Shown: in pieces, positions 743 through 20,213 of the stretch
Position numbering within the stretch: the first letter of the stretch is position 1
Layout: each line of letters begins with the position of its first letter
Assembly (NCBI RefSeq): GCF_035285525.1
Contig: NZ_JAYKGW010000014.1
Coordinates: 1-20,430 of the forward strand
Direction: 5' to 3'
Source of the DNA: Okeania sp.
GTDB lineage: Bacteria > Cyanobacteriota > Cyanobacteriia > Cyanobacteriales > Microcoleaceae
DNA: 20,430 bases
The notes under the pieces: model-generated
The model's input: the letters and a program-made list of their open reading frames with translations, nothing else
What the model was told of the DNA's origin: nothing
Databases searched by the model: none
Translations under genes and position numbers: made by a program

Positions 743-3175
743 ATGTTCGAGAAAATGAAATTTGTTCAGAAATGGACAGCGATTGCCCTCAGTGGCATCC
801 TACTGTCCCTTTCCCTGTGGACGTATCCAGCCCAAGCTGTCGAAGCGCCCCAGCGTTACGCCTACTTTGGCGATCTACATACTCACACCACCTATTCCCT
901 TGATGCCTACACGGGCTTCATGCGGAATGACCCCAACGCAGCCTACGAATTTGCGAGTGGTGGCTGCAATGTTGTGCCAGGTGGTCCACAAACCTGTGAC
1001 GAAACTCTTGGTATCCCCCTCCACAAACTAAAAAAGCCCCTAGACTTTGCTGCCGTTACCGATCACGCCGAATTTTTAGGTGAGATGGAAATGGCTATCA
1101 ATCCCGAATACGGCAAAAAGAAATACTACAATCCTCTAGCCATTGCTATTCGGAACAAACCCCAGTCTGAATTACTATCAACCTTGGTTTTTGTTAAGGT
1201 CTTGCAAGCAGCAAACCGTGGTAACAACCCCGAACGTAGTGACTATGGCTCCGGTCCCATTGCCGATGAAGCCAGAGTTAACGCATGGAAAAAAATTCAA
1301 CAGGCTACAGAAGACTACTACAAACCTGGAGAGTTTACGACGCTGCATGCCTTTGAATGGTCATCAGCTCCAGGCGGTGTCAACTTCCACCGGAACGTAA
1401 TTTTCGGCGACACTGTTCCTACGGACGAGAATGGTAACGTTTTGCCTGGAGTTCTCCCCGATGTGCCTGTCAGTGCCTTCGAGACTCAATCCCCTGAAGT
1501 ATTGTTGGAATATCTCAGTCAATACGAAGCTGGTGGTGCTAAAGTTCTAGCGATTCCACACAATGGTAACGCCAGTGCCAACAAAATGTTTATGCCCGAA
1601 CGGTGGGATGACGATACACCCATTGACCCTGAATGGGCAGCAAAGCGTGCCAAGTACGAACCATTAGTCGAAATTATGCAAATTAAGGGGACTTCAGAAA
1701 CCTTACCTGACTATGCCCCCGAAGACGAATTTGCGGATTTTGAATTAATGGAACTCACAGACCGGACTCGCGGACGCTACGGTTATGTGCGCGAAGCTTT
1801 GAAAAACGGTCTGCGCCATGAAGAAAACTTAGGAATCAACCCCTTCAAGTATGGTATTGTTGGTGCAACAGACAACCACAACGGTTCCCCTGGCGATACC
1901 TACGAAGATGACTATATGGGTTCCCACGGTTTCAGCGATGCCACCCCCGAACTGCGACAATTTAGTGAGATACCAGGCTGGGAGTCCTTCCCTTATCTAA
2001 ACCCTGGTGCCCTCACAGGGGTTTGGGCTGAACAAAACGAACGTGAACCGATTTTCAATGCCCTACAGCGTAAGGAGACTTTTGGCACTAGCGGTACGCG
2101 GACTCAGGTGCGCTTTTTCGGAGGTTGGAACTTCTCTGATAATCTGAACGAGCAGCCAGATGCAGTTGACACTGCTTACACTACCGGCGTACCAATGGGT
2201 CAGAATTTGCCAGTGCGGGCAAGTGAAGCACCGAAGTTTATGGTCTGGACAACGAAAGATCCCGATGGGGCTAACCTGGATCGGATTCAGATAGTTAAAG
2301 GTTGGACGAAACACGGAGTGACCTACGAGAAAATTTATGATGTGGTAGGTTCGGATGGTCGCACCTCCGATCCAGAAACCCACAGACTGCCTCCTCTTGA
2401 AAGTACGGTGAATGTGGTCAATGCTACTTACGAGAATACTATTGGCGAGCCAGAACTTTCTACAGTCTGGACTGACCCCGATTTTGACCCCACGGCACGA
2501 GCAGTCTACTATCTGCGGGCACTGGAAATTCCTACCCCCCGCTATTCCACCTATGACGCTGCAGAATTGGGCATCGTCCCTAACCCAGTTTCAGCAACGG
2601 AAATCCAAGAGCGGGCTTGGAGTTCGCCTATCTGGTATACCCCCAGTGAGGAAGACTTGACCGCAGGAGAGGCAAATTCCCTGACTGTTGACAAACTGGA
2701 AGCAGCGGGAATTCAACCCCTGACGACTCAGCAGATTAAAGACCGGATTTCTGGCCATAATTTCCAGATTGCCAACCGCATCACAGAGGAGGAGTTTATC
2801 GGTTTCTTCCAGCCATTGGGCTTGCGTTCGGAAGGTGAGTGGTTTTTAGGGTTGTCAGCTAGCTACGCACCAATGCACACCCACGAACTAGAAGCGGCAG
2901 TGCCGACAAAGTACGAGATTAAGGATAATGAACTTCACTTTAACCTCAAGGATGGTAGTGAGTTCGTCGCCCAACTCTTCCTTCAGGATGGGAAAATTCT
3001 GGCAGCTCGCAATGACGAAATTGGCTATGTTAACTATGAGTTGACAGACCTCGAACCAGAGATAGAGCGGTTGACTCTACCTCCTCAAATTTCTGAAAAG
3101 TTGAGTTCACAAGATTTTTGGGATTTAATCATTCAGCAAGTTGAGAAACATTATTCAATCAAGCAGATCAAGTAA
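743..3175 (+). CDS. Secreted DUF3604-family protein (PHP-like metal-dependent hydrolase fold), 810 aa, with an extra ~170-aa C-terminal region
   Basis: Long ORF behind a strong SD. Signal-peptide-like N-terminus (...LWTYPAQA/VEAP). Motifs GDLHTHTTYSLDA, AAVTDH, FEWSSAPGGVNFHRNVIF, AIPHNGN, VRFFGGW, LDRIQIVKGW and ERAWSSPIWY are what I recall for DUF3604. About 50% identical by eye to the next gene. Confidence 0.88.
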   Translation: MFEKMKFVQKWTAIALSGILLSLSLWTYPAQAVEAPQRYAYFGDLHTHTTYSLDAYTGFMRNDPNAAYEFASGGCNVVPGGPQTCDETLGIPLHKLKKPLDFAAVTDHAEFLGEMEMAINPEYGKKKYYNPLAIAIRNKPQSELLSTLVFVKVLQAANRGNNPERSDYGSGPIADEARVNAWKKIQQATEDYYKPGEFTTLHAFEWSSAPGGVNFHRNVIFGDTVPTDENGNVLPGVLPDVPVSAFETQSPEVLLEYLSQYEAGGAKVLAIPHNGNASANKMFMPERWDDDTPIDPEWAAKRAKYEPLVEIMQIKGTSETLPDYAPEDEFADFELMELTDRTRGRYGYVREALKNGLRHEENLGINPFKYGIVGATDNHNGSPGDTYEDDYMGSHGFSDATPELRQFSEIPGWESFPYLNPGALTGVWAEQNEREPIFNALQRKETFGTSGTRTQVRFFGGWNFSDNLNEQPDAVDTAYTTGVPMGQNLPVRASEAPKFMVWTTKDPDGANLDRIQIVKGWTKHGVTYEKIYDVVGSDGRTSDPETHRLPPLESTVNVVNATYENTIGEPELSTVWTDPDFDPTARAVYYLRALEIPTPRYSTYDAAELGIVPNPVSATEIQERAWSSPIWYTPSEEDLTAGEANSLTVDKLEAAGIQPLTTQQIKDRISGHNFQIANRITEEEFIGFFQPLGLRSEGEWFLGLSASYAPMHTHELEAAVPTKYEIKDNELHFNLKDGSEFVAQLFLQDGKILAARNDEIGYVNYELTDLEPEIERLTLPPQISEKLSSQDFWDLIIQQVEKHYSIKQIK

Positions 3176-3355
3176 ATCTACTCTGGCATCTCACAATAGT
3201 TGGGTAATTTCCCAACCCATTGATTGAGTGTAAGTCCAGCGACTGACAGATAGCTTCCTAACTAGAAGCGATCGCCAAAAAACCTGAACCAATAGAAACC
3301 TTGTCCAAAGTTCAAAAATCCAACAAAAAACAATTCCTACAGGAGTTATCAAAAA
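3172..3355 (+). promoter_or_regulatory. Leader copy L2 (long-hairpin variant), between the two DUF3604 genes
   Basis: GTAAATCTA 3172-3180 contains the TAA stop of gene 1. P1 is CTGG 3183-3186 / CCAG 3236-3239. P2 is CTCA 3190-3193 / TGAG 3225-3228. Also CAAT 3194-3197 / ATTG 3219-3222 and an apical stem GTTGGG 3199-3204 / CCCAAC 3211-3216. GCTTCCTAAC at 3253-3262, AGGAG SD at 3341-3345. Confidence 0.5.
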
Positions 3356-5536
3356 ATGAATCGAACGATTTCGCAAGTCCAACGGCTTTTGGTCGGACTT
3401 TGCACTCTCCTCTTCGTGGGTAGGATATTCCTCGGTGCTAATAGCGCCCTGGCAACTCCCTCGATCCCCGGAGAATACGACTTTATATTTCGGAAAAGCA
3501 ACTCAACCACTGTGCCTGAAGTAGATTGTCGCTTTTACCCAAATACCAAGTGCTACTCTCCCAATGTGCAGCATCCTCAACAGGTATTATGGGGCGATAC
3601 TCACCTGCATACCATTTATTCTTTTGATGCAGGAGCCGATGGAGCTCGTTTGACACCAGCCGATTCCTATGAATTTGCTAAAGGCAATGAAGTCACGATT
3701 GATGCAGGACAACCTGTCAAGCTTTCTCGTCCCTTAGATTTTTTAGTCGTTACCGATCACTCGGACGGATTAGGGGCTTTTGGGGATTTTTTGTATAATC
3801 TTCCCACAGATTGTGGTTCCGATCAAGAGCAGGTCAATACCTGGCATGAGATGATTCTTGCAGGTGGAGATGAGGCATCTCAAGCTTCATCAGAAATTAT
3901 TGCCAGTTTTTCCCAAGGAAACTTCCCCTTATGTATGTTTCCCTCTGCCGAAGAATTCCAAACTTTCTGGCAGGAAATTATTGATGCAGCAGAAGCTTAT
4001 AACGATCCGGGTAATTTTACCGCTGTGATTGGTTATGAGTGGACTTCGCTGTTGGGTGGCAACAACTTACACCGTAACATCATCTACCGCGATAATGGGG
4101 ATAAAGCCAAGCAACTGGTCCCCTACACCACAGACCAAAGCACTAATCCAGAATACCTTTGGGATTGGATGCAAAACTATGAGGATAAAACAGGTGGTAA
4201 TGTGCTAGCGATTCCTCACAATGGTAATCTCAGCAACGGTCTGATGTTTGCAGAAATCGATCATAATGGTAATCCTTTAACTGAAGACTATGCTAAACGG
4301 CGACAGCTTTGGGAACCCATCTATGAAGTTACCCAAATTAAAGGTGCCAGTGAGACCCATCCAGAAATATCTCCTGATGATGATTTTGCTGATTTTGAGG
4401 TTGCAGGTTGGGATATTGGCAACCTGGATCTGAGTTTCCCCAAACCCCCTGAAACCGATCCCGAAGCCCGCAAGAAGATGTTTGAGCATGAATATGCTCG
4501 TCCAGCTCTGAAAAATGGACTAAAATTTGAAGAAAGCCTGGGTGCTAACCCGTTCAAATTTGGTCTAGCAGGTGCATCAGATTCTCATATTGCTCTGTCG
4601 GCAGTCGAAGAGAATAGCTACATGGGTAAGTTTGTAAGTGAAGCTCCCAGTGCTGAACGAGCAGTAGAGGATCATGGCGGTCGTTTGGGATGGCAGTATG
4701 GAGCCTCTGGCTTTATAGGAGTTTGGGCTACGGAAAATACCCGTAAGGCTCTATTCGATGCGATGGAACGGCGAGAAGTTTATGGCACAACCGGACCGCG
4801 TATGAAGGTGCGTTTCTTTGGCGGTTGGGATTTTGCCAACTCCGATCTAGAGGATATGGCTGAAGTGGGCTACAACAAAGGAGTTCCTATGGGTAGCGAT
4901 TTACCTCCAGCACCTCCGGTTCCTGCAATATATCCACCCCCGATTCCGTCTCCAACCTTTATGGTGGCAGCGATGAAAGATTCTGATTCCTATGGAGCAA
5001 ATCTAGACCGGATTCAAATCATTAAAGGCTGGCTGGATGCTGAGGGCGAAACCCATGAGAAAATCTACGATGTAGCTTGGTCTGGCGGACGTACCCCTGA
5101 TACCGAAGGCAAAGTCCCCGCCATTGAAAACACTGTGGACACAGAAACGGCAACTTGGGACACCACCAGCGGTGCTGACTACCTGGAAACAGTCTGGACT
5201 GACGATGAGTTCGATCTCACCCAGCGAGCGTTTTATTACGCGCGGGTGTTGCAAGTTCCGACTCCTCGTTGGACGGACTACGACAAGGCGTTCTATGGCG
5301 ATGAGTGGGATGCTGCTTGTGCTGCTGCGGAAACAGACCCGGAATTAGACATCGTTTGTGATGAGATTCCCCTAACCTTACAGGAACGGGCGTATACCTC
5401 TCCGATTTGGTATTCTCCAGCTACAGTAGCAATGGAATCCACATCCGAGTCTACCCAACCTGTTGAAAATGTGGCTGAAGAAGATTTTTGGGATACAATC
5501 ATTCAGCAGGTTGAGAAACGTTATTCAACTAAGTAG
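3356..5536 (+). CDS. Secreted DUF3604-family protein, paralog 2 (726 aa)
   Basis: Signal-peptide-like N-terminus (...GANSALA/TPS). Same motif series as gene 1: GDTHLHTIYSFDA, VVTDH, YEWTSLLGGNNLHRNIIY, AIPHNGN, VRFFGGW, LDRIQIIKGW, ERAYTSPIWY. Confidence 0.88.
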   Translation: MNRTISQVQRLLVGLCTLLFVGRIFLGANSALATPSIPGEYDFIFRKSNSTTVPEVDCRFYPNTKCYSPNVQHPQQVLWGDTHLHTIYSFDAGADGARLTPADSYEFAKGNEVTIDAGQPVKLSRPLDFLVVTDHSDGLGAFGDFLYNLPTDCGSDQEQVNTWHEMILAGGDEASQASSEIIASFSQGNFPLCMFPSAEEFQTFWQEIIDAAEAYNDPGNFTAVIGYEWTSLLGGNNLHRNIIYRDNGDKAKQLVPYTTDQSTNPEYLWDWMQNYEDKTGGNVLAIPHNGNLSNGLMFAEIDHNGNPLTEDYAKRRQLWEPIYEVTQIKGASETHPEISPDDDFADFEVAGWDIGNLDLSFPKPPETDPEARKKMFEHEYARPALKNGLKFEESLGANPFKFGLAGASDSHIALSAVEENSYMGKFVSEAPSAERAVEDHGGRLGWQYGASGFIGVWATENTRKALFDAMERREVYGTTGPRMKVRFFGGWDFANSDLEDMAEVGYNKGVPMGSDLPPAPPVPAIYPPPIPSPTFMVAAMKDSDSYGANLDRIQIIKGWLDAEGETHEKIYDVAWSGGRTPDTEGKVPAIENTVDTETATWDTTSGADYLETVWTDDEFDLTQRAFYYARVLQVPTPRWTDYDKAFYGDEWDAACAAAETDPELDIVCDEIPLTLQERAYTSPIWYSPATVAMESTSESTQPVENVAEEDFWDTIIQQVEKRYSTK

Positions 5537-12446: not shown

Positions 12447-14984
12447 CTATGGTGCTAATTTACCTTTACCAAGTCTATTTTTTTCATACCATTCTGCTAT
12501 ACTAGGAACCCAATCTTGAACATGAGGCCACATTAACTCACATAATTTTTGAATTTCTAATTGAGCATTCTTTTTAAAACGTAAATCCAAAAAATGTAGC
12601 AAACTACGGGAATTAAAACTAACAATAAAATGCTGACGATAATCAAAAGGAATTATTCCTCTAGCGTGTTCTTCAGACATTCCTAAATCCATAGCAATTT
12701 TATATTTATTAGCTGCCTCTAAACACCACTGTAAATCTTGTTCTCGTTGTTGAGGAGAATAATAATATTTTTTACCTTGACGGTCAAAATATTCTCCCAC
12801 CGGACGTAAGTAAAAAGCAGTTTCTATATCCGTTTTTCCCTCTGCCACTGCAATAACTTTTCCGGAACAGTAACGATAACTTTGTACATCAAAAGAATTA
12901 TGAACAACTAAACCATTAGCGATAAAATTATGTTCTGGATGTTCTACTTCAATATCATAAGTAATTTCTTTCCCAAATTTTTCAATAGATTCTATTTCTA
13001 CAAAATCAGGGAACAGGGAACAGGGAACAGGGAACAGAGAATTAATAGGATTTATAGTTGATTTTGGATAGGAATTTTCTGCTATCCACTTTTCATCCAA
13101 GATTTCTTTTTCCCAAAAATTAATGTCTCGTTGAGCAATTTTATTACCAGTTAATCCCACTTCACATAATTGAGTTTTATTCTTCTTTATCAGGAATGGG
13201 GAACAGGGAACAGGGAACAGATAATCAATATAATTTATAGTTGATTTTGAGTGGGAATTTACTGGCATCCACTTTTCATCTAACATTTCTTGTTCCATAA
13301 AACTAATTTCCTGTGGAGGAATTTTATTACCAGTTAATTGCACTTCACATAATTGAGTATTATTATCAAATTCCTTCAACCTTTTCCACCCTTGATTAGT
13401 CCAAAACTGGTGTTCTAATGTAGCTCTTATTTCTTTACCAGAAACAGTTTTTATTGTGTAAGTTTCTTGTTCGCCATTAATATAAATATTAGTAATTTTA
13501 CTAGAAACAAGTTGGTTAGTTTTAGTATCTAAAGTCAAAATAGTACGTCTAGATATACTCTCTTGCATATATTTTGCATCATTAGAAGTTTGTTGATGTT
13601 TTCTCCCGTAATGCCATAAATTAGCTAATTTTTCAATAGTTTCTTCATAATATTTCTCTCCTCTATATAAAGACGAATGCCCAAATCTAACCTTTGTATT
13701 ACCCGACAAACAACAACCTATTCTATGAGTTCTTGCTTGTTGCATCACACTATGAGGAAAAAATCCACAATTAAAAGTAATTTGCGGGTGTTCAAGACAA
13801 TTTCCACAGACAATAACTTTTCCATTTCTTCTAACTAATAAAGCACCAGTAGAAACAGAAGCGCAATAAACTTTACCTTTGTAATTAACAAAACCTTCTT
13901 TTCTTCCTGCATCTTTATTTTCTTGACAATATTCAACAGGATATGTAGAAATTTCAGAGCTATGTAATCTCCAGCAAGGTTTCTGATTTTTATCCGCTTC
14001 ACACTCATTTTTATTATTTAAAGTTAGGTTTGCCCTAAAACCATTAATATGTGCAGTTGCTTGAATTATTTCTAAAGCATTTTTATTAGTTGAATCATAG
14101 CACCAACTTTTTTCTTTTATATTTGTACCATCACTGTTTTGTAAGCCATCCCAAAAACTTGCTATTAAATTTGCTGGTAATTCTAATAACCAAATTGGCA
14201 CAGTCTTATCTTCAGAATTAGAAAAATTTCGATGAATCCATGAAGCTAAGGATTTGTGTTCAATTACAAACCTATTTTCCTGAGTTTTTTCGATGTCTAA
14301 ATTCAATGAAAGTAAATAATCTATTTTGCCAGAATTTTGTATTGTAAATCTAACAACATCAGAATTTTTATTTATACTTCTCAACCCATCTCTATAGAAA
14401 AAACCTGCTATTCTAAAAGCTGTTTCTAAGTCGATATTTTCTGGTAGATCCTTAGGTAACTTTCTGGAACTATTTTTTAAATAGCAATTCAATAAATAAC
14501 GTACTGGTGTATTATAAACATCTTCAGCTTTTTTGCTAAACCATTCTGTCCAATTATTTTCTGTACTTGTTCTTCGGGAAACTATCATCCTATGGTCTTT
14601 TGTGACTAGCAAATCAATAAAATTGCTCTGAACATAATATAATTCATCATCTATATCATACTCATAAAGTTTACTTGGCTTTTCAAACCAAGCCTCTTTT
14701 GTCTCAGGATTTACAGCTAGTAACTCCATAGCATAAGTTATTTTATTCCAACTAATCCAACCTTGATTTGTTAACACTTCAGTATCAGCAGAATAGCATC
14801 CAAAATGGCCGCGATCGCCTGCTAAAAGTCGCTTAACAATAATTTCCCCACATTTTGCTTCCGAAGGCCAAGTATTTTGTTCATCAAAGACAAATCCTTC
14901 ACTATAATCTTGATGTAAAGCTGCATAAATTAGTTGTTGAGGATTAGGTGTTTTGTTAATAATTTCTACTCGAAATTTATCCAT
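12447..14984 (-). CDS. thyX: FAD-dependent thymidylate synthase ThyX precursor carrying two inteins (845 aa; exteins total ~240 aa)
   Basis: Exteins are aa 1-62 (...LLAGDRGHFG), aa 396-424 (CLEHPQITFNCGFFPHSVMQQARTHRIG[C]) and aa 697-845 (SFDVQSYRY...). Joined, they recreate the ThyX signature R-H-R-x(2-3)-S-x(4)-S-x-R-Y. They are separated by two Hint-type insertions. Confidence 0.88.
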   Translation of the reverse strand: MDKFRVEIINKTPNPQQLIYAALHQDYSEGFVFDEQNTWPSEAKCGEIIVKRLLAGDRGHFGCYSADTEVLTNQGWISWNKITYAMELLAVNPETKEAWFEKPSKLYEYDIDDELYYVQSNFIDLLVTKDHRMIVSRRTSTENNWTEWFSKKAEDVYNTPVRYLLNCYLKNSSRKLPKDLPENIDLETAFRIAGFFYRDGLRSINKNSDVVRFTIQNSGKIDYLLSLNLDIEKTQENRFVIEHKSLASWIHRNFSNSEDKTVPIWLLELPANLIASFWDGLQNSDGTNIKEKSWCYDSTNKNALEIIQATAHINGFRANLTLNNKNECEADKNQKPCWRLHSSEISTYPVEYCQENKDAGRKEGFVNYKGKVYCASVSTGALLVRRNGKVIVCGNCLEHPQITFNCGFFPHSVMQQARTHRIGCCLSGNTKVRFGHSSLYRGEKYYEETIEKLANLWHYGRKHQQTSNDAKYMQESISRRTILTLDTKTNQLVSSKITNIYINGEQETYTIKTVSGKEIRATLEHQFWTNQGWKRLKEFDNNTQLCEVQLTGNKIPPQEISFMEQEMLDEKWMPVNSHSKSTINYIDYLFPVPCSPFLIKKNKTQLCEVGLTGNKIAQRDINFWEKEILDEKWIAENSYPKSTINPINSLFPVPCSLFPDFVEIESIEKFGKEITYDIEVEHPEHNFIANGLVVHNSFDVQSYRYCSGKVIAVAEGKTDIETAFYLRPVGEYFDRQGKKYYYSPQQREQDLQWCLEAANKYKIAMDLGMSEEHARGIIPFDYRQHFIVSFNSRSLLHFLDLRFKKNAQLEIQKLCELMWPHVQDWVPSIAEWYEKNRLGKGKLAP
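12897..13712 (-). mobile_element. ThyX intein 2 (~272 aa), mini-intein without a recognisable endonuclease
   Basis: Starts (C)CLSGNTKVRF. Block B is ATLEH. Ends ...ITYDIEVEHPEHNFIANGLVVHN, followed by +1 Ser697. The first residue is ambiguous between Cys424 and Cys425. Confidence 0.8.
12999..13364 (-). repeat. In-frame tandem duplication (2 x 183 nt = 2 x 61 aa) inside intein 2, each unit ending in GGGAACA heptamer repeats
   Basis: Unit 1 is 13182-13364 (NNTQLCEVQLTGNKIPPQEISFMEQEMLDEKWMPVNSHSKSTINYIDYLFPVPCSPFLIKK). Unit 2 is 12999-13181 (NKTQLCEVGLTGNKIAQRDINFWEKEILDEKWIAENSYPKSTINPINSLFPVPCSLFPDFV). On the + strand (GGGAACA)x4 lies at 13009-13036 and x3 at 13199-13219. Confidence 0.85.
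13800..14798 (-). mobile_element. ThyX intein 1 (333 aa) with a LAGLIDADG homing-endonuclease domain
   Basis: Starts CYSADTEVLTNQGW (block A). Block B is LLVTKDH. LAGLIDADG-like motifs are RIAGFFYRDG and LIASFWDGLQNSDG. Ends ...VYCASVSTGALLVRRNGKVIVCGN, followed by +1 Cys396. Confidence 0.85.
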
Positions 14985-17325: not shown

Positions 17326-17696
17326 GATATTTTTCCCTAATTTTTTTCTAAACAAAAATATAATATCATCAGGACTAAAGTTTTTTATTTGAGGGGAGGA
17401 GTCAGAATCGGTGAATCCAGCAATCCTGCAATCCAGGAGGAATAACAATTATAGAACAGGTAGCCAGAATAATCTTACTCTAATTTTTTACCCCTCGAAA
17501 TACCCAAAATCCAGGATTTTTGAGCTGGAGTCTCCTAAAAGCTGGTAGTTTATTAGTATCTATAAATGCTGAAAGCAATGCCCGTAAACACTTTGATAAA
17601 TAATTCAGCCAGCCCTAAGTATCTTATTGTATCGCTTATAGCGGTCGAAGCAAAGGTTAGGACAGTTCAAAAGCTGAAAACTCAGACAACGCCAGA

Positions 17697-17742
17697 TTCT
17701 TCCTTCTTCCTTCTTCCTTCTTTCTTCTTTCTTCTTTCTTCT
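17697..17742. repeat. Polypyrimidine heptamer tract (TTCTTCC)x3 (TTCTTTC)x3
   Basis: Six consecutive heptamers at 17697-17738 plus a partial TTCT. ORF 17566..17826 runs through it and is treated as spurious. Confidence 0.85.
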
Positions 17743-17780
17743 GCTATACATACGCAAATCATCAAGATAAGTAGCCGAGA

Positions 17781-17820
17781 GTCTTTCCTCCCCGTGACTT
17801 TAGTCACGGGGAGGAAAGAC
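17781..17820. repeat. Perfect 18-bp-stem palindrome (GTCTTTCCTCCCCGTGAC TTTA GTCACGGGGAGGAAAGAC) in the 3' flank of the IsrB-like gene
   Basis: Arms are 17781-17798 and 17803-17820. A second hairpin GACGGTT/AACCGTC lies at 17825-17840, 5 nt after the IsrB stop. Either could be a transcript terminator or an IS200/IS605-type subterminal hairpin. Confidence 0.6.
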
Positions 17821-17845
17821 GAATGACGGTTTTAACCGTCGTGAT

Positions 17846-19022
17846 TTAAACAACACAGAGCTTATTTGACCGACGAATCAGCTTAACTTTCTTAAGGGAA
17901 AATTGCCCAATTCGTTTCCAATTGTGGTCGTAAACGCTGATATTTTTGCTTTTAGCATCAGTAAAACCACCAACCCATCCCATGTAGGTTTTTCCTGCTT
18001 TTTCTGCTAAAACTCGATCGCCATAACGAACATTAAAAGGAGTAGTTGTTCCCCCTTTGCGTTTACGAATGCTGCCTTTTTCTGTATTGTCAAAGTGCAA
18101 AGCACGACGAAAATAAGCAGGTCTGGTTATAACTCGGAAAATGCAAGGAGTAATATTAACTGAACCTTTCCATCCCCAAGTATCGTTTTTTTTACCAGGG
18201 GTTACGCGCCCGACGGACAAACTCACTTGCTCCCAAAGCAATCCCATCTACTGCATGAGACTCTGGTACTTGGGCTTTTTTATCTTTGATTTTCTCCAGT
18301 TTTAAATATCGGCGTATTTGGCTGGTTCCGTTATTATTCTTTTGCCAACCATAGACAGTTTTAACTGGGGCAATAGATTTGAGCTTTTCTACGCAATAAT
18401 TCTGTCCAACCATTACTGGAGAAAATCCTTTACCCGAACGCGCTCCTTTTCTACCGCTGGTTAAATCGACATCAGCTTTAACCAATTCATAGACAATTTT
18501 ACTAATAGGAAATACCTGGGAAAGTTCAGCAATGACTCTGATTTCCATCTCCCTAGAAGCTCGAATAGATGGAACTAATTTACCTTTTTGAATGCGATTA
18601 TTGAATCGCTTTTGTCGATGGGCACGTTGGTTAAAGGGTACTTTTCTATTAATTCTTCTACCTCGTCGTGCCCGACGTTGCAATGCTCGGTTTCTGACAT
18701 TTTTAATGACTTTGCCTTGCTTAATAACAGCAGAACCAAGTCGCTCTTTAACGCGGTCGAAAGGCAAAACGAAATGTGCGGCAAAAAGAGTAAACTTTGC
18801 GGATTGGACTGCAATCCCGGTATACTTTTTACCAGGGTCACAGCCAACTGCTATTTTCTGAGTTTCACAACCCGATGGTTCAGCTACCAGCCGAACATAA
18901 TACAAGCCTGTATCATTCCAATGGGAAGTTGCTTTTCCTTTCTTGAGCCAACGACGTGCCCGCGATGCTTTTGTCGGCATTGCAGGGGAACCGTCTGGAT
19001 TTTGAACTGGTACTCGAAACAT
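17846..19022 (-). pseudogene. isrB: IsrB-like (IscB family lacking the HNH domain) OMEGA RNA-guided nuclease gene, split by one frameshift
   Basis: N-terminal PLMP-type domain MFRVPVQNPDGSPAMPTKASRARRWLKKGKA. RuvC-I is KIAVGCDPGKKYTGIAV. Arg-rich bridge helix is LQRRARRGRRINRK...RFNNR. RuvC-II is KIVYELVKAD. RuvC-III is SHAVDGIALG. No CxxC/HNH insert is present. The C-terminal target-interaction-like domain (RRALHFD...KGG...FNVRYGDRVL...GWVGGF...) is in the adjacent frame (ORF 17846..18247). Confidence 0.8.
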
Positions 19023-19290
19023 AAGAGATAATCCTTTTCGAGAAAAGTTGTATGTCCCTACGACCACCAAAAACGTTGTGTCCTGGAATAACCCAGTGCC
19101 TTCACCCAAGAAGGCCAACAAATAGTCCGGGCTAGGGAAATACCCAGAGGTGTTATCGTTTTTGGCTCCATGCATGCATGGTCTAGCCAACTCTTAGTTA
19201 GACGTTGGGTTGTCCAAGCTGCGCGTCTTTAGACCGCAGAAGTTGACCTAAGTCAAAACTCTCTTCGCTATTCGTGGTTTATACACTTTT
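19023..19290 (-). ncRNA. Candidate omega-RNA scaffold (plus guide at its 5' end) of the IsrB-like element; boundaries approximate
   Basis: It is in the position expected for IscB/IsrB omega-RNAs, immediately 5' of the ORF on the same strand. Several hairpins read on the - strand: CTGCGGTC-TAAA-GACGCGCAG (~19221-19241), TTGGCT...AGCCAA enclosing the 14-nt palindrome CCATGCATGCATGG (~19163-19190), CCTTC-TTGGGT-GAAGG (~19098-19113), CTTTTC..GAAAAG (~19034-19047). The 56-codon N-terminal extension of ORF 18192..19190 lies here and has no IscB-like sequence. Confidence 0.45.
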
Positions 19291-19583
19291 TTTCATACTA
19301 AAACTACTATATTTGACATGACTCACTTGTCTCTTAATTTAGGACAAAATAATAGGAATATTACAAATAGTACCATCTATATTCTATGGTTTATGGCGGT
19401 CCTAATAGATATTATATCAAATCCGCTTAATTCGATAGAACAAAATATTTTATCTTCAACCATTACTATATCTTCCCATACTCCTCACCCTCTCCACCCT
19501 CTTTTTACACCGATACTACCGGATTTGATATTACTATTCTCACCATAGATTCTAATAGGAATATTGGTGAGCCACCTGCTCGC

Positions 19584-19667
19584 ACAGCGTTCGTCTCATA
19601 AATTATCAGTAATTATCCGTATAATACAGCGTTCGTCTCATAAATTATCAGTAATTATCCGTATAAT
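19584..19667. repeat. Perfect 42-bp tandem duplication
   Basis: ACAGCGTTCGTCTCATAAATTATCAGTAATTATCCGTATAAT occurs at 19584-19625 and again, identical, at 19626-19667. Confidence 0.9.
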
Positions 19668-19785
19668 TCACTGAAGCTGTACTCAAATTTTAATAAATAG
19701 ACTATAATAAGAAGGATTTACGCAGAGCCACCATTTCTATTAGGAGCAAATCTTTGCCTTCTATAGGTAACTCATTTTCTAACAC

Positions 19786-20153
19786 AGGACTTACCCATGG
19801 ACGCTATTAGTAGTAGTTGACTGTTTCAGCTAAAATAGTGCATTAGATTTTCTCTTTTGCTACCTTGTCTTCCTTGTCTAGACACAATCAAAAAGTAATG
19901 CACCATTTAAGGTGAAACAGTCTACTGGATTGTTTCTTCTTAAATTCTTAAATGGTGTAATAGGCTTTTTTCTCCCTTACTACCTTGTCTACCTTGCCCT
20001 CCTTGTCTTCCTTGTCTTCCCACAACCCAAAATCGCTCTGTACAGTTTTAGATGAAACAGTCTATTAGGGTGCGTTACGCTACCGCTAACGCACCAAGAG
20101 ACTACTATATGTAGAACCTTTGCGTAAGTCCTGTAACAGTTTGCGTAAGTCCT
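19786..20153. mobile_element. MITE-B copy interrupted by two tandem palindromic STR-bearing elements; right end duplicated
   Basis: The left end AGGACTTACCCA...ACGCTATTAGTAG (19786-19816) and right part TTAGGGTGCGTTACGC...GCGTAAGTCCT (20065-20132, end repeated at 20142-20153) are collinear with 11465-11552. The inserted modules 19812-19925 and 19930-20065 each have inverted ends (GACTGTTTCAGC / GGTGAAACAGTC) around CCTTG-containing short tandem repeats (2 versus 4 units). Confidence 0.5.
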
Positions 20154-20213
20154 AAAATATTTAACTACCACTAGAAAATTTACTTACAAACTCAACTATA
20201 GTAGAAATTAAAC

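Follow-up and report, generated by a model that had tools for sequence, protein, structure and literature searches.

What is encoded in the roughly 270 nucleotides (nt) of hairpin-rich DNA directly upstream of a gene for an IsrB nuclease in the cyanobacterium Okeania sp., and where within that DNA would a guide RNA begin? The gene, isrB, lies on the minus strand of contig NZ_JAYKGW010000014.1, of which the first 20,430 nt (the window, meaning here the whole stretch of DNA that was analysed) were examined together with 80 related genomic loci that were fetched for comparison. An earlier note on this DNA had proposed the span 19023-19290 as a candidate omega-RNA of the nuclease, encoded 5' of, and on the same strand as, the IsrB open reading frame (ORF). 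We conclude that window 17766..19247 (-) is very probably a non-autonomous IS200/IS605-type element bearing isrB and its omega-RNA, this grade applying jointly to the element, the scaffold, the guide and the target-adjacent motif (TAM). The span that had been proposed divides in two: the structured block 19023-19247 stands as omega-RNA scaffold, and 19248-19290 is flanking DNA specific to this copy, its first 16-20 nt being the predicted guide.

The identity of the block was established with covariance models. In E-value mode, the Rfam model HEARO (RF02033), a family later recognised as the omega-RNA of IscB and IsrB (Meers et al., bioRxiv 10.1101/2023.03.14.532601), matched 19247..19047(-) over the full model (positions 1-211) with 37.4 bits and E=9e-6. 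Two models of our own were added. The first, R1, was built from an alignment of 17 close copies, window included, and gave one full-length match on the IsrB strand in 75 of 81 sources; in 74 of these 75 the match ends at the IsrB start or no more than ~160 nt from it, the exception being a locus (L032) with an intron in between. With R1, the window scaffold reaches 238.6 bits, a value inside the span covered by the training copies (215.7-253.7 bits), of which the window is itself one. The second model, R2, takes its sequences from loci of Crocosphaera, Cyanothece, Arthrospira and Prochloraceae alone, the window and its close relatives being excluded, and its sole match in the 20.4-kb window is 19247..19023(-), at full length, with 58.3 bits and E about 9e-15. 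The matched block adjoins the ATG at 19022 of the RRXRR/IsrB ORF, on the same strand. The HEARO match, at full length but below its threshold, answers the search with published covariance models that the earlier note had proposed as a check; it and the R2 match support, with the conservation and covariation described below, the reading of 19247..19023 (-) as the scaffold of an IsrB omega-RNA (HEARO), a known and experimentally characterised type of RNA.

The limits of the element are sharp on both sides. When the upstream regions of 16 close copies were compared with blastn and MAFFT, the alignment that had also been proposed as a check, conservation was found to begin abruptly with GTCAAC at window 19247; this conserved start, GTCAACTTCTGCGG, is at the same time position 1 of the HEARO model. 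The sequence 5' of 19247 is unrelated among the 16 copies, which have 14 different flanks, two pairs of copies being orthologous insertions. Because conservation begins at 19247 and all sequence 5' of it is unrelated, the junction between scaffold and guide is placed at 19247|19248. On the isrB-distal side, conservation in 17 copies reaches 84 nt beyond the stop codon and ends in TTGA (17765..17762), which is invariant in all 17 and is followed directly by total divergence. In another subfamily, four near-identical copies from one metagenome-assembled genome (MAG) likewise begin with GTCAAC and finish with ...CCAGTTGA, their flanks diverging at the same points.

Hairpins stand near both ends of the element, as in IS200/IS605-type elements. 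The SL1 hairpin of the scaffold sits 8 nt from the right end, in the manner of a subterminal IS200/IS605 hairpin, and the gene-distal end contains a perfect palindrome with 19-bp arms at 17781-17820, 15 nt from the left end. Together with the invariant TTGA/TCAA and the 14 distinct flanks, these hairpins mark the element as IS200/IS605-type. Outside the element the window has seven ORFs of 196 amino acids (aa) or more, none of which was recognised as a Y1 transposase, and searches of the window for another copy of the element or another target of the guide found none. The element lies upstream of mtnA, in the same orientation. The 17781-17820 hairpin is shorter and imperfect in most relatives.

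The block also has a conserved fold. The region 19023-19310(-) folds better than its dinucleotide shuffles (z=-2.87; 2 of 200 shuffles as good), and its G+C content is 0.445-0.46 in 19000-19299 versus 0.315-0.375 beyond, further upstream of the element, a difference that the earlier note had described for the DNA beyond ~19300. That note had counted at least four stable hairpins; at least six (SL1, SL2, SL4, SL5, SL6 and SL7, over 19239-19034) were found, all of them kept by compensatory changes in relatives. The helix names are our own mapping to the nomenclature of Hirano et al. 2022. RNAalifold, run on a structure-blind MAFFT alignment of the 17 close copies, returned 66 pairs, 20 of them with compensatory changes. 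Across the 75-locus alignment, 59 of the 66 pairs are compensatory and the share of paired cells is 91%, against 34-48% in slid controls; as this alignment was fitted to the model, its counts lean towards the structure. In total, 13 helices over 225 nt and two long-range pseudoknots are kept by compensatory changes.

The pseudoknots covary in columns that the covariance model leaves unpaired. In the adaptor pseudoknot, formed between the loops of SL2 and SL5, compensatory changes are seen in three of five pairs, and 89% of the cells from all loci are paired, the loop alignment being gappy; its covariation variants are CCCAA/UUGGG, AUCAG/CUGAU and UCUAA/UUAGA. In the nexus pseudoknot, formed between the SL4 loop and the linker that follows S2, five of six pairs are compensatory and 87.6% of cells are paired, with the variants UCUCUA/AAGAGA, UGUCUA/AAGACA, UCGCUA/AAGCGA and CCCCUA/AAGGGG. 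Adaptor and nexus pseudoknots define the group B IsrB omega-RNAs (Hirano et al. 2022, PMC9581776), and the architecture here is that of group B: a 5' stem around SL1 and SL2, a nexus stem around S3, S4, SL4, SL5 and SL6, and the two pseudoknots. A comparison with solved IsrB-omega-RNA structures was a further check that had been proposed, and the architecture matches that of the RNA solved by cryo-electron microscopy. Between SL7 and the ATG there is only a small GGN/NCC hairpin over the ribosome-binding site, itself covarying, and the GGA ribosome-binding motif is conserved just 5' of the ATG at 19022. This hairpin may be the counterpart of SL8, or the RNA may continue into the ORF. Two candidates were set aside in drawing this anatomy. 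Helix 12 of RNAalifold (GGGA/UCUC) showed no compensatory change and was replaced by the nexus pseudoknot and the small local hairpin, both of which covary, and the single-sequence minimum-energy fold, which misses the consensus structure for the window copy, was not used.

The protein encoded next to the scaffold is an IsrB. Its ORF opens with the ATG at 19022, begins MFRVPVQNPDGSPAMPTKASRARRW... and has RRXRR (PF14239, E=4e-42) as its sole Pfam match; no HNH domain was found in the Pfam scan of this ORF. Its best solved relative is DtIsrB of Desulfovirgula thermocuniculi (PDB 8DMB, E=1.5e-24), with IscB structures far behind, and the motifs PAMP, GCDPG, YELV and SHAVD were identified. In a protein search, full-length homologues of 391 aa were found in Okeania, Dapis, Roseofilum and many other cyanobacteria, and one such full-length relative (P0002) aligns with DtIsrB to the C-terminus (E=5e-44). 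The R and Q of a KRIGQ motif, which is kept in the window, align with R323 and Q326 of DtIsrB, the residues that read the G and A of TTGA (Hirano et al. 2022, PMC9581776). DtIsrB has a measured TAM of TTGA/NTGA, which lies 3' of the target and is read on the non-target strand (Hirano et al. 2022, PMC9581776). The conserved reading residues are therefore in agreement with the invariant TTGA that closes the element.

These boundaries and residues allow a mechanism to be proposed. In the published view, the transposon right end supplies the scaffold and the flank adjoining it on the 5' side supplies the guide, with transcription starting outside the element (Meers et al., bioRxiv 10.1101/2023.03.14.532601). 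Because transcription must begin in the flank, flank sequence would be joined to the RNA as its guide; we infer that the window's RNA is expressed in this manner, with ~16-20 nt (19267..19248) added to the scaffold. The table lists a guide of 20 nt, a length borrowed from the guide of the DtIsrB structure (Hirano et al. 2022, PMC9581776). In this family, the IsrB-omega-RNA complex binds DNA that is complementary to the guide and has TTGA on its 3' side, and it nicks the non-target strand. The predicted target is the joint that excision would recreate, consisting of left flank, TTGA and right flank (CGAAGAGAGTTTTGACTTAG-TTGA-TGATTTGCG...). The occupied site would escape nicking, because it has GTCA, not TTGA, at the TAM position. 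The features of the element and its RNA are collected in the table.

Features of the isrB element and its omega-RNA in the window (helix names mapped to Hirano 2022)
Feature	Position	Strand	Remark
Candidate guide, 5'-CGAAGAGAGUUUUGACUUAG-3'	19248..19267	-	transposon-flanking DNA, outside the element
Omega-RNA scaffold, 225 nt (217 nt without the private insertion)	19023..19247	-	covariance models and conservation
S1	19247-19240 with 19193-19186	-	
SL1	19239-19219	-	
SL2	19217-19198	-	
Adaptor pseudoknot, 5' strand (SL2 loop CCCAA)	19205..19209	-	pairs with SL5 loop UUGGG, 19109-19105
S2	19183-19179 with 19069-19062	-	
Private 8-nt insertion, (CATG)x2 expansion	19168..19175	-	absent from 16 of 16 aligned relatives
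S3	19162-19157 with 19075-19070	-	
S4	19155-19151 with 19120-19116	-	
SL4	19149-19126	-	
Nexus pseudoknot, 5' strand (SL4 loop UCCCUA)	19133..19138	-	pairs with UAGGGA, 19060-19055, in the linker between S2 and SL7
SL5	19115-19098	-	
SL6	19096-19083	-	
SL7	19047-19034	-	
Small GGA/UCU hairpin over the ribosome-binding site	19034-19024	-	
isrB N-terminal part, 276 codons	18192..19022	-	PLMP-type motif (here PAMP), RuvC-I/II/III, arginine-rich bridge helix; premature end
Extra base breaking the isrB frame, within CGGGCGCG	~18208	-	relatives have TATGGC-type sequence
isrB C-terminal part, TAM-interacting domain, other frame	17846..18207	-	KRIGQ motif kept
Gene-distal transposon end (left end in the TnpA convention; here as reverse complement)	17766..17845	-	two hairpins; conserved in 17 copies up to ...CTTGA
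TTGA, predicted TAM	17762..17765	-	edge of conservation; equals the TCAA insertion site on the other strand

Several results weigh against this reading, in whole or in part, and are taken here together. The whole window has no Rfam match at curated thresholds, the HEARO score of 37.4 bits lying below the gathering score of 83. That score is a curation cut-off and not a biological criterion: none of 20 related loci passes HEARO at the gathering threshold, Arthrospira platensis (L050) included, which with the window makes 0 of 21. Meers et al. (bioRxiv 10.1101/2023.03.14.532601) ran HEARO at a 15-bit cutoff combined with ORF adjacency, called the model incomplete and rebuilt it. An empty site was sought in two ways. 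A search of the metagenome collection for the excision joint (flank, 0-10 nt, flank) found none, and synteny offered none either: in L082, where the closest orthologue of MtnA is encoded (94% aa identity), colinearity stops at mtnA and the upstream side is rearranged. With regard to expression, a promoter scan gave a -35/-10-like site at 19333-19306(-) that is within chance (5 found versus 4.2 expected) and was not used to set the RNA 5' end, and no same-strand gene lies upstream of the omega-RNA in the window. The two remaining points, an insertion that disturbs the predicted fold and an extra base that breaks the gene, need to be considered at more length.

The insertion concerns the palindrome around which the earlier note had drawn a nested stem. 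The palindrome, CCATGCATGCATGG (CCAUGCAUGCAUGG), is present at 19181-19168 as had been claimed, and it is created by the 8-nt CATG expansion listed in the table, which is also missing in all four relatives compared in a full-length element alignment. Judged by these alignments, the stem is private to the window copy and is no feature of the family. The insertion site is the linker where SL3 stands in B1 omega-RNAs and where B2 omega-RNAs have unpaired bases; in the 16 aligned close relatives the linker at this position is short, about 4-6 nt. In the window, the insertion can form a 5-bp hairpin of -5.2 kcal/mol, which is a recent accident and no ancestral SL3. The insertion overlaps the 5' strand of S2. 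The predicted minimum-energy fold of the window copy (-71.3 kcal/mol) departs by 3.8 kcal/mol from the consensus (-67.5 kcal/mol), and once the insertion is removed the predicted fold is the consensus. This disturbance is weak evidence, because a close relative without the insertion (L003) also misfolds in silico. According to Hirano et al. 2022 (PMC9581776), SL3 is a dispensable stem-loop at the periphery of the RNA.

The extra base near 18208, which the earlier note had missed, is the only frame-breaking indel of isrB in comparison with four relatives. The frame shifts after ...ASEFVR and the RuvC part (276 aa) is split from the TAM-interacting domain, so that the ORF 18192..19190 represents a truncated product and a 133-codon ORF at 17846..18247 the rest of isrB. 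With the base removed, an intact protein of 391 aa is obtained. The ratio of nonsynonymous to synonymous substitution rates (dN/dS) against the four relatives is ~0.09-0.12 overall, 0.075-0.11 before the lesion and 0.12-0.21 after it. Because the repaired gene is intact and dN/dS is low on both sides, the lesion is either recent or an error. The extra base is found again in a Logan contig from SRR19514071 that is identical in sequence, although that contig may derive from the same data. A programmed ribosomal frameshift was considered and rejected, since the extra base is missing at the DNA level in all four relatives and the homologues are made as a single 391-aa product.

The explanation that survives best beside the one preferred here is that the locus is a dead relic, a decaying transposon end descended from an omega-RNA and without present function. 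We regard this as possible, if doubtful. The frameshift, which is present in the Logan contig too, truncates IsrB before its TAM-interacting domain, the private insertion competes with S2, and the upstream side offers neither a same-strand gene nor promoter-like sites above chance level. Other copies in the family are broken as well, L022 by two 1-nt insertions and L008 by an in-frame TAA after codon 11, and decay of individual copies seems common in this IsrB family. On the other side, a single base separates the gene from an intact one with low dN/dS, so that any inactivation would be very recent or an assembly error; the insertion aside, all conserved helices and both pseudoknots are kept, with an R1 score inside the training range; and the insertion falls in the linker that replaces SL3, the element described as peripheral and dispensable. 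That the window copy is currently active in cis is a tentative view at most, with a likelihood that stays below even.

It is also conceivable, although improbable, that the locus functions in spite of a genuine frameshift, either with a two-piece IsrB (the 276-aa RuvC and bridge-helix part together with a TAM-interacting domain translated on its own from the 133-codon ORF at 18247) or as an orphan guide-RNA gene, in either case with an SL3-like hairpin in its RNA, the grade applying to these versions jointly. In the orphan version, IsrB made from other copies would take up the private guide in trans; in both versions, a peripheral hairpin like SL3 would have arisen anew through the CATG expansion.

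Far less room is left for the view that the block is a transposon end acting as DNA only, its hairpins serving TnpA on single-stranded DNA with no functional RNA, which we consider highly unlikely. Such a view would account for a block that begins at the transposon boundary with SL1 8 nt from the end, and for the isolated copy of the SL1 hairpin found elsewhere in L003. It does not account for the compensatory changes in 13 helices over 225 nt and in two pseudoknots, whereas TnpA requires the terminal hairpin only, nor for an architecture that is that of an RNA solved by cryo-electron microscopy; the two roles are moreover not exclusive, the published view being that the scaffold overlaps the right end. 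Lastly, next to no credence can be given to a coding role as an N-terminal extension of IsrB from 19190, since the open frame of 56 codons, continuous with the IsrB frame and already taken as accidental in the earlier note, has no Pfam match and shows 1-nt and 8-nt indels in relatives with substitutions that are paired and compensatory and not codon-like, while homologous proteins begin at the equivalent of 19022, with M-F/L/I-R-V-P, and a conserved GGA ribosome-binding motif stands just before that ATG. The reading of the locus as an IsrB element with its omega-RNA is therefore retained.

A number of observations were made in the neighbourhood of the element and in the related loci. In L032:441-3001, from a MAG of Cyanosarcina radialis HA8281-LM2, the omega-RNA (441-656) is separated from the start codon of IsrB (3001) by a complete group II intron, which fills exactly this interval and has the same orientation. 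It has an Rfam Intron_gpII domain V/VI match at 2919-2995 and a 554-aa ORF with RVT_N, RVT_1, GIIM and HNH domains, and it puts 2.3 kb between the guide RNA and the nuclease gene. The isolated hairpin in L003 (6751-6775) is a near-exact SL1/right-end hairpin (TCTGCGGTCTAAAGACGCGCAG) located 2.5 kb downstream of the IsrB element with the rest of the scaffold absent; it may mark one end of a further IS200/IS605-type element, or be a solo end.

In the window itself, the intergenic DNA upstream of the element is repeat-rich at 19584-20160, with a perfect 42-nt tandem duplication at 19584-19667, 9-nt repeats of the CCTTGTCT type at 19848-20014, 21-nt tandem TTTGCGTAAGTCC repeats at 20119-20160 and several inverted repeats of 29-37 nt within 19784-20134. 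Nearer to the element, two short stretches within 19356-19577 match the 5' end of the GT4 glycosyltransferase gene of L082 with 87-88% identity, which suggests a gene remnant and a rearranged neighbourhood beside the insertion. On the other side, a purine-rich (AGAAGRA)n simple repeat at ~17690-17745 (-) starts ~17 nt outside the terminal TTGA. Further away, a ThyX (Thy1) gene at 12447-14984 (-) is split by an intein (Pfam Intein_splicing, residues 479-696 in a product of 845 aa), two tandem DUF3604 genes (810 and 726 aa) occupy 743-5536, and one gene resembling pyridoxal phosphate (PLP)-dependent decarboxylases and one of the alpha-amylase family are found further along.

In terms of significance, a 1.5-kb stretch has been assigned to a known class of RNA-guided transposon nickase, which has little import beyond annotation; comparison of copies has now fixed the scaffold/guide junction exactly and yielded predictions for the guide (20 nt) and the TAM (TTGA). 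Among the known systems, the nearest is CwIsrB of Crocosphaera watsonii, which belongs to subgroup B2, has an omega-RNA without SL3 and nicks a target with a TTGA TAM (Hirano et al. 2022, PMC9581776). Like the window system it is cyanobacterial, with adaptor and nexus pseudoknots. An unpaired linker stands in the place of its SL3; the lack of SL3 in the window's clade would fit subgroup B2, and the window copy itself has the hairpin-forming insertion at this place. Two C. watsonii loci (L028 and L029) are matched by R1, the model made from the window's clade. At the protein level, a close relative of the window IsrB (P0005) is ~53% identical to these C. watsonii loci, with the reservation that the copy used experimentally may be another one. 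The C. watsonii RNA begins with TTCAAC, against GTCAAC in the window, and in contrast to C. watsonii the window has the 8-nt palindromic insertion in its SL3-less linker and a frameshifted isrB. The 75-locus alignment, with its covariation in helices and pseudoknots, could give a better model of B2 omega-RNAs.

With DtIsrB (8DMB), which belongs to B1, the window shares homology over the full length of the protein (by way of P0002), the equivalents of R323 and Q326, the RNA architecture with both pseudoknots, and TTGA. The DtIsrB scaffold, however, is 262 nt long and has SL3 and SL8, whereas that of the window measures 217-225 nt to the start codon, has no SL3, and no SL8 was identified in it; DtIsrB comes from a thermophilic firmicute and the window from a cyanobacterium. 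Measured against HEARO (RF02033), position and strand are right and the full model is covered, but the window's clade has lost one of the model's long stems. At its curated threshold Rfam HEARO misses this cyanobacterial IsrB clade as a whole (0 of 21 loci), which should be useful to OMEGA annotators. More distantly, the IscB omega-RNA and the pairing of CRISPR RNA (crRNA) with trans-activating crRNA (tracrRNA) in Cas9 have in common with the window system a 5' guide, a conserved nexus and a 3' TAM, or protospacer-adjacent motif (PAM), read by a C-terminal domain; according to Hirano et al. 2022 (PMC9581776), the RNAs of IscB and Cas9 show degeneration of the adaptor pseudoknot. Unlike IscB and Cas9, the window protein is without HNH, and because this domain is absent the enzyme would be a nickase, of the compact kind, such as IsrB, that is of interest for genome editing.

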